DNA of 64,000 bases from a virus (taxonomy: Duplodnaviria > Heunggongvirae > Uroviricota > Caudoviricetes), in the IMG/VR virus record IMGVR_UViG_2718218100_000003; one strand, 5' to 3'. Below are positions 15,001-18,000 of the stretch, in pieces. How positions within the stretch are numbered: position 1 is the stretch's first letter; the number at the start of each line of letters is the position of its first letter. A program made the position numbers.

Positions 15001-18000
15001 GGGGGCGGAGAGATCCGCGCCGGTCGGTTTCCCGGTTACGCCAACCCTGCACAGTTCACCACCAGACGATTGGCGTCGTCGGTGGTGAGTTATTAAGAAA
15101 CCACCAGAGGGCGTCATTATGACAACTAAAATTTCTGTTGAAACTCTCTCCCCGATCACCCATAACCAGATTCCTGTTATTACCACCGAACTTTTGGCGC
15201 AGCTTTACGGCACTGAGCCGGTGCGTATTCGCCAGAATCATCATGAGAACAAAGTACGCTTCGTTGAAGGGAAACACTTTTTCAAAGTTGTTGGTAATGA
15301 CCTTAAAGAATTGCGGGTAGCTTTAAACTACTCACAAAATTTGCGGGTTACTTTAAGTAACTCACAAAATTTGCGGGTTACTTTAAGTAACTCACAAAAT
15401 TTGCAACCATCTTTAAGAGGGTTACAAATTTCCCCGAAAGCCCGCTCCCTCATCCTCTGGACAGAACGCGGCGCAGCCCGTCACGCAAAAATGCTCGAAA
15501 CCGATCGGGCGTGGGAAGTGTTCGAAAAACTGGAAGACTGCTATTTCAGTCAAAAAATCCCAGAACAACTTCAGCTTCCAGAATCAACACTATCTATCAA
15601 CTACCCTCTCTCGTGGTTTTCAGAGCATCACCCCTACTCCATGATGAGCTATGTTGATCGAAAAACTCTTAACCTGGACGTTTCTGTGCTCTTCGATATG
15701 CCAAGCCCAACTATGCGCATCCTCAACGAGCTACACAGCAAGGGCTATAACGTCGATGCAGCTGTCGCCGAATTTAACGCCTTCAAGCATCTGACGGAAG
15801 AAATGCGCCGTACTCTACAGGATATTTCAAGATTGTCAGATCGAAATTCCCGAAAAGGCTTCTCGTTAAGTCTTTAAAGAACAGATCGTTTGACAATGCT
15901 GCATTAACGGGGATATATTCCGCCTCATGGTGCTCAAAACACCTTAGCAAGTAGCGGTTACCGCGCCCGACAGACATGCGGTTTTTTTGTGTCCAGTCTT
16001 CTTGGTTTATGACCGGGCGTGCGGCTAATACAACACCAGCAATGGGAATATGCCCGCCGACTACTTGCGGTTTTGAGCGCCCGGTCACCCTCTCAAAAGG
16101 GGTAAATCAAAATATCAAGTAGGACATAAAGCATGAAAACCATCTCCGTGGAGTCCCTCTCCATAATTTCATTTAGTAATATACCTGTGGTGACTACAGA
16201 GCTTCTTGCCAGCTTATATGGCACAGAACCAGATTACATCCGAAAAAATTTCAATCGGAATTCTGGACGATTTGTTATCGGTAAGCACTACTTTTTACTT
16301 GAGAATGAGGAGTTGCGCGAATTTAAGCACAGTGAACCGCCCCGGTTTTCCTGGAGAGTGTTTTATCTGTGAACTCAGGCTGCCAGATCATCGTTTCCGA
16401 TGGAAGCATAATAAGCTTTTTCTGCTTCTGCCGGAGGAGTATGGCCCAGCCTTCCCAGCAATCGTCGATTGTTATACCAGTCCACCCACGTTAGTGTGGC
16501 CAGTTCCACTTCTGCACGGTTTTTCCAGCTCTTACGGTGTATTACCTCCGCTTTGTAAAGACCATTGATGCTCTCAGCCATCGCGTTGTCATACGAGTCG
16601 CCTGTACTCCCTGTTGATGCCAGTAATCCGGCTTCTTTTAGTCGCTCCGTATAGGCCAGTGACACATACTGAGAGCCTTTATCGCTGTGATGGATGGTGC
16701 CAGACGGACGACGGGCCCACAACGCCTGCTCCAGCGCATCCAGCACGAATGTCGTTTCCATAGACGATGAGACCCGCCACCCCACGATGTATCCGGCAAA
16801 CACATCAATGATAAACGCCACATAGACGAAGCCCTGCCATGTGCTGACGTAAGTAAAATCAGCCACCCACAGCTGGTCAGGTCGTTCTGCCACGAACTGA
16901 CGGTTTACGCGGTCGCCTGCGGCAACGGCTTTCCGGCTGATGGTCGTACGGACCTTTTTACCCCGGAGAACACCGGCAAGTCCCATAACCGCCATGAGAC
17001 GTGCCACTGTACATCTGGCCACCCTGATTCCTTCCCGTAACAACTGACGCCAGACTTTACGCACACCGTACACCTGATGATTTTCATCGTATACGCGCTG
17101 TATCTCTCTCTTCAGCCAGTCGTCGTGCTGCGCACGGGCACTGCGTTTATCCGGATGATGTCGCTGTTGCTGACAATGGTAATACGTTGACGGGGCAATA
17201 TGCAGTTCGCTGCATACCGGTCCGACCCCGTACTGCTCACGCAGCTTATCCAGCAGTGGCATCATTTTTTCCAGAGGCGGTCGAACTCCGCCTTCGCAAA
17301 ATAAGCGGAAGCCTGGCGAAGGATATCGTTACTGCGGCGCAGTTCACGATTTTCACGTTCCAGCTCTTTCAGACGCTGACGTTCAGCGCTGGTGAGCCCA
17401 CCATCACCGCCCCCGGTATCCCGCTCATGCTGGCGAACCCAGACACGCAGAGTCTCCGGCGTACAGCCAATCTTTGGGGCAATGGAACAAATTGCCGCCC
17501 ACTGTGAGTCATATTCATCCTGACTTTCCAGAACCATACGAATCGCCCGCTGACGGACTTCGGGGGAAAAACGAGTATTTTTAGTCATCCTGTTTACCTC
17601 TTTCTCAGGGAGTTTAGTCTCCAGGATTTCCGGGGCGGTTCACAGCATGTCTTTAAGACCTTCTGTGAAAATCGCCCGTAACGTTCGCTCCCTCATCCTC
17701 TGGACAGAACGCGGCGCAGCCCGTCACGCAAAAATGCTCGAAACCGATCGGGCGTGGGAAGTGTTCGAAAAACTGGAAGACTGCTATTTCAGCCAGTGCG
17801 AGAAAAATACTGGCAAACAAGAGAAGAAGCTCAACGGGCTTTCCGCAAAAGAAACAGACAGCCTTGTATGGCTGTGGGATTATGCCAACCGCTCACAGGC
17901 ATTGTTCCGTGAGTTGTATCCCGCATTAAAACTGATTCAGTCTGGCTATTCCGGCATATGCCACGACTACGGCTATGAGTTCTCGTATATCATCGGGAGG

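Follow-up and report, generated by a model that had tools for sequence, protein, structure and literature searches.

An in-frame palindromic repeat in antA of a Stx2c-type prophage and its covariation with a putative recognition helix of ORF6N proteins

The antA gene and its tandem repeat

The stretch of DNA considered here (the window) comprises 64,000 nucleotides of IMG/VR virus record IMGVR_UViG_2718218100_000003, a member of the Caudoviricetes, and represents a Stx2c-type (Shiga toxin, Stx) lambdoid prophage of Escherichia coli O157:H7. Its antA gene codes for an ORF6N-domain antirepressor-like protein, AntA, and harbors an in-frame 30-bp tandem repeat, the subject of this study (Table 1). 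The open reading frame (ORF) is 100% identical to antA of the Stx2c phages Stx2_EH1904, 2851 and Nil2. A single ORF6N domain (PF10543) is recognized in AntA by Pfam (E = 2e-18, 66.9 bits, compared to a cut-off of 27.8); residues 12-125 span just 84 positions of the profile, and the approximately 30 extra residues therefore correspond to the repeat. The “antirepressor” proteins that carry ORF6N, Bro-N, KilA-N or Rha domains count among the most common regulators of phages and among the least understood; judged by their titles, the papers found with the term ORF6N use it in passing and none deals with ORF6N function.

The array is composed of four units. Two of them are perfect copies of ctcacaaaatttgcgggttactttaagtaa, located by direct reading at 15331-15360 and 15361-15390, and these are flanked by degenerate units in which 19 (15301-15330) and 21 (15391-15420) of the 30 positions match by manual count. 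Tandem Repeats Finder reports the stretch 15311-15404 with a period of 30, 3.1 copies, 92% matches and a score of 153, and a repeat search returned three 60-nt copies spaced 30 nt apart and in register, together with several inverted repeats. In the frame of antA the units encode ELRVALNYSQ, NLRVTLSNSQ (twice) and NLQPSLRGLQ. Direct reading, Tandem Repeats Finder and translation thus bear out the original prediction of two perfect and two degenerate in-frame copies. The same prediction assigned one near-palindrome to every unit, which holds for part of the array: GTTACTT-T-AAGTAAC, a perfect 7+1+7 dyad, occupies 15347-15361 and 15377-15391, its only occurrences in the 64 kb (0.06 expected by chance), but units 1 and 4 contain different dyads of their own at the same phase (centres 15324 and 15414). 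The dyad of the fourth unit has arms of 17 nt (15397-15431), which are 88% complementary.

Several known types of signal were sought at the array and set aside. No terminator-like or attenuator-like site was found there on either strand, and T-tracts past the stems are unconserved in the alignment as read by eye. The scan for an internal promoter did not reach its threshold, inspection by eye revealing just a weak TTGCGG-N18-CAAAAT; Rfam gave solely sub-threshold look-alikes of miRNA precursors. A match to the integration host factor consensus near the array is poor by eye, and the outer arms, ACAG...CTGT, are wrong in both orientation and spacing for a LexA box.

Copy number was surveyed in the 120 closest protein clusters and in an evenly spaced sample of the 769 matching records from 5,426 complete E. 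coli genomes. In the protein clusters, the segment from GKHFF to LILW has a length of 60 residues in the window allele and of 50 in the commonest one; segments of 40 residues and rare register variants (ELRVTLSNSQ...) also occur. In the sampled records the spans are 260, 230-231 and approximately 175 bp. The E. coli alleles thus contain two, three or four units, and the window allele represents the maximum seen. A query of two perfect units is matched at 99% identity or more by about 164 E. coli records, and none of the records from the 5,426 genomes carries three such units. With a period divisible by three and a copy number that is polymorphic among close relatives, the array is an in-frame variable-number tandem repeat (VNTR).

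In the AlphaFold model of AntA, residues 11-66 and 105-143 have a predicted local distance difference test score (pLDDT) of about 90, compared to values below 50 for residues 71-103. The extra units are thus modelled as a disordered loop between a helix (residues 59-72) and a strand (residues 110-114), and unit 1 is modelled as the end of that helix. Because the perfect direct repeat extends over 60 bp, the array would be prone to gain or loss of 30 bp, i.e., 10 residues of the disordered loop. The proposal that the repeat forms a slippage-prone variable linker is therefore supported by the alleles of 40, 50 and 60 residues, the record spans and the low pLDDT, and the number of copies differs among E. 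coli alleles rather than being identical.

A family-wide palindrome and the helix with which it covaries

By exact-match and protein-guided scans, 140 related loci were collected, and 112 unique genes were scored. Nearly every homologue bears a palindrome 41-53 nt past the G of GKHFF, in most cases a single one, and the sequences differ: 74 distinct palindromes were enumerated, with arms of 7-15 bp and a centre of 3-7 nt. A palindrome score of at least 7 is reached at this site in 80% of the unique genes, versus 9% in the upstream coding flank, 5% in the downstream flank and 4% in shuffled sequences. The palindrome-bearing taxa include Enterobacterales (Salmonella, Pectobacterium, Photorhabdus), Acinetobacter, Chromatiales (Chromatium), Rhodospirillales (Rhodospira) and Selenomonadaceae, and weaker palindromes occupy the equivalent position in phages of Azospirillum, Lactobacillus, Clostridioides, Bacillus and Paenibacillus.

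The two arms of the palindrome change together. In two sequence-based MAFFT alignments, for which a slid partner and 500 shuffles served as controls, the arms pair in 85.8% and 85.2% of the cells, versus 21-45% with the slid partner. Double-sided changes number 108 versus 44.8 +/- 4.8, and 32 versus 13.3 +/- 2.8, values that none of the 500 shuffles reached. One pair of arm positions displays all four Watson-Crick types (GC 9, AU 8, UA 7, CG 6). Since the dyad is invariably centred on the middle position of a codon, codons pair with codons, and the pairs GTA/TAC, GTG/CAC, GTT/AAC and GTC/GAC are all present in the homologues. The silent third base of a Val codon thus dictates a Tyr, His, Asn or Asp four codons further on, which places the constraint on the nucleic acid and makes the peptide its passenger. 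Within E. coli itself, no recent compensatory change was found; variant P0018 (Y>N, TAC>AAC) is a single uncompensated one.

The mismatches within the stems are informative as to the nature of this nucleic acid. G·T mismatches number 41 versus 34 for A·C, and 24 versus 23 in a strand-neutral scan. Of the two hallmarks of a hairpin RNA, compensatory changes are present, but tolerance of G·U above A·C on the transcribed strand is not. A hairpin selected as RNA, whichever strand encodes it, would be expected to favour G·U; the symmetry is therefore attributed either to duplex DNA or to templated mutation.

In the single-site genes, each type of palindrome core is tied to one sequence of residues 33-44, regardless of genus or of outer-arm class. 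Cores GTAGC and GTATC accompany the helix [VI]RIRQN, GTTAC accompanies NNIKVN, and CTGAC accompanies N.IQQN; the remaining types pair ACC[AC]TCT with K[HN]IQNN, ACCCG with KNISDN and CTATC with IRIQQN. The helix of AntA is PVRIRQNHHENK, and the core of its site 1 is found with the same helix type in homologues L061, L102, L053/L006 and L074. Distances between cores correlate with those of residues 33-46 (Mantel r = 0.49, p < 0.001). The corresponding r is 0.00 with residues 11-32, 0.06 with the 16 residues that separate the helix from the palindrome, and 0.13 with those that follow the site. When DNA takes the place of protein in the comparison, the helix gives 0.47 and the segment in between 0.16; the third codon positions of that segment give 0.065 despite differing at 59% of sites. 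The association of helix and core is thus no product of linkage.

Mutual information with the core is concentrated at residues 35, 36, 38, 39, 42 and 43, which form one face of the helix, with the invariant I37, N40 and N44 in between. The highest value links residue 38 to base -7 (z = 22.5), where Q occurs with C in 26 cases, R or K with G in 25, R with A in 3 and S with C in 3. Four pairs of core types share bases -6 to -2 and differ at -7 (AGTAGCT/ACTAGCT, AGTATCT/ACTATCT, GGTTAC/ACTTAC and GTGAC/CTGAC), and in all four residue 38 alternates between R/K and Q. The rule also holds, by hand reading, in four of four distant phages outside the set from which it was derived: Cd (Q/C), JL22 (R/G), PLE2 (K/G) and Booya (Q/C). 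On the DNA, the informative bases are confined to -7..-3 and +3..+7, with background values at the centre and past +/-8. Two half-sites of 5 bp, with their centres 10 bp apart, represent the geometry expected of a helix-turn-helix (HTH) dimer on one face of B-DNA. As judged by covariation, the palindrome is a symmetric site that tracks the putative specificity residues of the predicted DNA-binding domain encoded by the same gene, as would be expected of an intragenic operator.

In the structural model, helix 34-43 lies within a fold that resembles a MerR-like HTH, and the covarying residues would occupy the exposed face of its second helix. The MerR-like winged-HTH domains (pSK1 Par, RacA, MerR, GlnR and TnrA) share 6-15% sequence identity with AntA, with no match at the sequence level, and the proteins are unrelated to the C-terminal half of ORF6N and to the effector domain. 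A sequence search retrieved no solved structure, and Foldseek against the PDB returned nothing significant.

Expansions to two or three palindromes have occurred independently at the same position in other lineages (L087/L090, L092, L070, L029/L067, L003, L077, L111/L115 and L120/L132). These include Acinetobacter, with three sites, and Selenomonadaceae, with DLQNLRVT-like repeats.

A candidate intragenic operator and alternative explanations

We consider it reasonably probable that the palindromes serve as operators, each recognized by a dimer of the ORF6N HTH and embedded in the very gene that encodes it. This is the most economical reading of the palindromy, the absence of a wobble bias, the covariation with one helix face and the footprint of 5+5 bp. 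The 30-bp unit would be built around a two-fold symmetric site on double-stranded DNA, and the binder would be a dimer of the MerR-like HTH in the N-terminal part of the ORF6N domain. The genes of the family would carry this operator approximately 200 bp past the start codon, where the encoded part of the protein is tolerant and lies at the surface. Since helix 34-43 and the inner half-sites change together, the peptide encoded by the site may be viewed largely as a passenger of the DNA requirement. The most likely role would be negative autoregulation of a potentially harmful antirepressor by an intragenic protein roadblock, positioned some 440 nt from the likely transcription start. In antA the single site would have been multiplied into four, spaced 30 bp apart, an array that would strengthen or broaden the block and at the same time add disordered residues to the protein.

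The original prediction had offered DNA binding as a second role for the repeat, and this notion survives in an altered form. The family-wide covarying palindrome, with half-sites that follow the helix, suggests that the array does contain binding sites, but not four copies of a single one. By family pairing, site 1 alone would be cognate to AntA, sites 2 and 3 being of the NNIKVN type and site 4 of the K[HN]IQNN type, and the likely binder would belong to the gene's own product family rather than being a generic phage regulator. The three cores each occur alone in other homologues (e.g., L061, L059/L062 and L119/L129), and the outer arms, CAAAATTTGC, are common to all three. Out-of-register recombination between alleles with common outer arms probably gave rise to the array, the latest step being the duplication of site 2 into site 3 through slippage by 30 bp; the two-unit E. 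coli alleles (sites 1 and 4) and the register variants fit such an order of events. In the multi-site genes L029, L070, L087, L092, L077 and L111, we likewise read one palindrome, usually the first, as matching the type predicted from the helix.

Several points weigh against an operator. The argument is one from covariation throughout. The palindrome reaches +/-13-15 bp, longer than the usual site of an HTH dimer, and the helix shows no covariation with its outer arms. As the site lies in coding sequence, base changes within it alter the loop, so that a contact inside the protein could account for the covariation of helix and core. Neither site 1 nor the site of the paralogue was found to recur elsewhere in the 64 kb, near promoters included, which leaves a roadblock as the only simple regulatory route. 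The rare alleles P0017, P0097 and P0116 retain the RIRQNHHENK helix and have lost site 1; the site is thus not indispensable. Finally, a megablast-level search of the 5,426 complete E. coli genomes did not find N-terminal modules with the helices that match sites 2-4 (NNIKVN, as in L059, and KNIQNN, as in L015), and together with the lack of further site copies this leaves a role of the extra sites across prophages unsupported.

The first alternative is a neutral one. Templated mutation of quasi-palindromes is established in E. coli, and a quasi-palindrome in a dispensable loop that perpetuates itself by intra-strand template switching, a change in either arm being copied into its partner, with slippage altering the number of copies, would yield a VNTR in a tolerant linker that has no function as nucleic acid. 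Near-perfect arms without wobble bias would be expected in this case, as would inserted residues that are disordered and variable in number, similar expansions arising independently in other lineages, and single uncompensated changes such as the TAC>AAC of P0018. Such a process does not predict, however, that the site should change in step with a single face of a helix whose codons lie 75-100 bp upstream, with the DNA between them uncoupled. It likewise fails to predict a symmetric footprint of 5 bp, the persistence of the palindrome in approximately 80% of homologues from different classes and its reach as far as Firmicute phages, or the re-use of few core types in distant genera. A neutral origin is therefore regarded as unlikely.

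The alternative of an RNA hairpin, formed by the antA mRNA or by an antisense transcript, which would act through RNase III or decay, ribosome pausing or termination, is improbable in our estimation, in view of the mismatch counts given above, which do not favour G·U on either strand. More units would lengthen the duplex and thereby tune expression. Indeed, the array folds far better than its shuffles both as RNA (z = -5.66; -47 kcal/mol, the two perfect units forming an imperfect stem of 34 bp) and as DNA (z = -3.82), the arms covary, and antA is already subject to control by antisense RNA. Yet the stems are followed neither by a terminator-like site nor by conserved T-tracts, Rfam offers only the sub-threshold look-alikes, and a hairpin provides no reason for the coupling to residues 35-43.

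The contact within the protein, to which we assign an equally low probability, would have helix 34-43 touch the palindrome-encoded loop, the DNA symmetry having a separate cause. The two readings are confounded in that every change of the core alters residues (V/L at -7; Y/H/N/D/Q/K/E at +5..+7), and the placement of unit 1 at the end of helix 59-72 in the model is in keeping with such a contact. Two unrelated causes would be needed, however, where the operator requires one. The synonymous position -5, which is complementary to +5, would be left without explanation, loops of “foreign” type tolerated in multi-site genes would fit poorly, and the covarying residues are those predicted to be exposed on the second helix of a MerR-like fold. 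That the gene contains a replication origin of the iteron type or a centromere-like site is highly improbable, given that most homologues have one site, that the prophage has its own replication module upstream (DnaB-type helicase, 11418-12794), that antA lies in a c4-ant immunity-type module and is of the ORF6N/antirepressor type, and that three of the four sites are of a non-cognate type.

Among known systems, the closest precedent for the proposed operator is Roi of phage HK022, an HTH protein of the nin region that reportedly binds a site within its own gene, as Clerget and Boccard are said to have found experimentally in 1996 (J Bacteriol 178:4077) for that one phage. Like antA, roi is a lambdoid nin-region gene whose product has an N-terminal HTH, and the C-terminal domain of Roi is Ant/KilA-like; unlike AntA with its ORF6N domain, Roi has an N-terminus of the Rha type. 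The antA site differs further in being deduced family-wide from covariation, in its footprint of 5+5 bp and in its apparent amplification into an in-frame array. Gene O of phage lambda provides a second comparison: the four dyad-symmetric iterons of ori-lambda lie in frame within its linker-coding part, and their specificity differs between related phages. The four dyad-symmetric sites in frame in antA, candidates for recognition by its own product, resemble this arrangement. O is, however, a replication initiator for which all iterons are cognate, whereas antA belongs to an antirepressor module, three of its four sites appear to be of other specificity types, and its ORF6N homologues mostly have one site. 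A layout of site within gene is also known from parS inside spo0J.

The upstream region of antA follows the order of P1/P7 immI (c4 - icd - ant) and of Salmonella isrK-anrP, namely promoter, a1/b1 targets, C4 RNA and antirepressor, and this order occurs twice in the window. As in a P1-type immI module, a C4-type RNA and a1/b1 targets directly precede the ant gene, the c4-a1b1 Rfam score of 45.9 being slightly under the gathering score of 46.7. The known control in these systems differs in that it acts on the leader RNA, and we know of no description of an intragenic palindrome as part of it. Coding VNTRs, contingency repeats and the Rickettsia palindromic elements resemble the antA array in having a period that is a multiple of three, polymorphic copies, an exposed and tolerant segment and an in-frame palindrome. 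In contrast to these, the antA units would comprise three site types, and they occupy one conserved position in one gene family without dispersal. Our literature search found no paper in which an intragenic palindrome is connected with ORF6N or antirepressor genes.

The novel elements of the present analysis are family-wide evidence that names the coupled residues and bases, an operator that would dictate part of a protein sequence, and the apparent amplification of an operator as an in-frame, copy-number-variable repeat of different site types. If the operator is real, every ORF6N gene would report its own DNA specificity, and a testable recognition code would be available for thousands of proteins. 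In addition to the c4 RNA, a second level of control over antirepressor expression would then exist, an autogenous one, and a DNA-binding requirement would be capable of dictating protein sequence and of creating in-frame coding repeats. In addition, the array provides a cheap polymorphic marker for Stx phages. A more speculative extension, which we consider doubtful, is that ORF6N genes fall into specificity groups, each with a matched recognition helix and self-encoded operator. Composite arrays like that of antA, in which a cognate site is joined to three heterologous ones, would in that case wire antA to the ORF6N proteins of other prophages, and changes of 30 bp would tune induction and Shiga-toxin output in polylysogens. 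Such groups would represent a natural, readable protein-DNA recognition code in ORF6N antirepressor-like genes.

Prophage setting and further observations

Table 1. Features of the antA region (window coordinates)
Feature	Position	Strand	Details
antA upstream control module	14845..15066	+	Rfam and promoter scan
Promoter-like site before antA	14845-14874		promoter scan 10/12
c4 targets a1/b1 and isrK-like RNA	14868-14957		isrK 74.7 bits (gathering score 50)
C4 antisense RNA	14983-15066		Rfam C4 66.7 bits (gathering score 45)
antA, 252 aa, ORF6N-domain antirepressor-like	15119..15877	+	holds the repeat; ORF list, translation, Pfam
Codons 34-43 (PVRIRQNHHE)	15218..15247	+	modelled second helix of the HTH; proposed recognition helix
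Four-unit 30-bp array, in frame	15301..15420	+	perfect duplication at 15331-15390
Site 1, dyad GGTAGCTTTAAACTACT	15316..15332		centre 15324; sole match in window; core type of AntA's own helix, RIRQNHHENK
Site 2, dyad GGTTACTTTAAGTAACT	15346..15362		centre 15354; core type paired with NNIKVN helix in single-site homologues
Site 3	15376..15392		centre 15384; exact duplicate of site 2
Site 4, dyad ACCATCTTTAAGAGGGT	15406..15422		centre 15414; core type paired with K[HN]IQNN helices
Second leader module	15890-16094		promoter-like site 15890-15919 and C4-like RNA 16011-16094, upstream of paralogue 2
Paralogue 2, antB type, ORF6N + P22_AR_C	16133..18126	+	split by IS629
IS629, 1,310 bp	16334-17643		3-bp duplication CAG; interrupts paralogue 2

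The two P1-immI-like leader modules are arranged in tandem, one before each ORF6N gene. The RNA of the second leader matches the Rfam family sRNA-Xcc1, a model of 87 positions equal in length to that of C4. Paralogue 2 has a single palindrome of its own, CACAGCATGTCTTTAAGACCTTCTGTG, at 17641-17667. The insertion sequence IS629 lies at the left edge of this palindrome (16329-16333 and 17641-17667), a position homologous to that of the antA array; phage 2851 has an IS629 copy between antA and antB, with antB intact. Where orfA and orfB of IS629 overlap, Rfam recognizes an ALIL pseudoknot on the minus strand (121.5 bits, 17191-17307). In insertion sequences of the IS3 family, ALIL pseudoknots provide the frameshift signal.

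The 3' halves of the ORF6N domains in the two paralogues (15443-15552 and 17686-17795, 110 nt) show 99% DNA identity, compared to approximately 56% protein identity for the 5' halves, and the conserved 3' block is common to many alleles with differing 5' halves. This pattern points to frequent exchange through recombination or conversion, a boundary of which would lie close to the palindrome.

A roi homologue is located at 18195-18923, 2.3 kb downstream of antA. In the Stx phage Phi24B, the ant gene, whose product resembles P22 Ant in its C-terminal part, has been proposed to promote efficient prophage induction (PMC3064807).

Other repeats occur elsewhere in the window. A 162-bp tandem repeat at 35581-36113 (3.3 copies, 96% matches, score 989) lies within an ORF of 833 aa (33994-36495). 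The ORF at 51259-52578, probably a tail-fibre gene, contains repeats of 45 bp and 9 bp (52210-52300) that encode Gly-X-Y-like (collagen-like) triplets. Strong palindromes with perfect arms of 13 bp and 11 bp, neither with the appearance of a terminator, are located at 44458-44489 and 44690-44716 within the ORF at 44398-45444.

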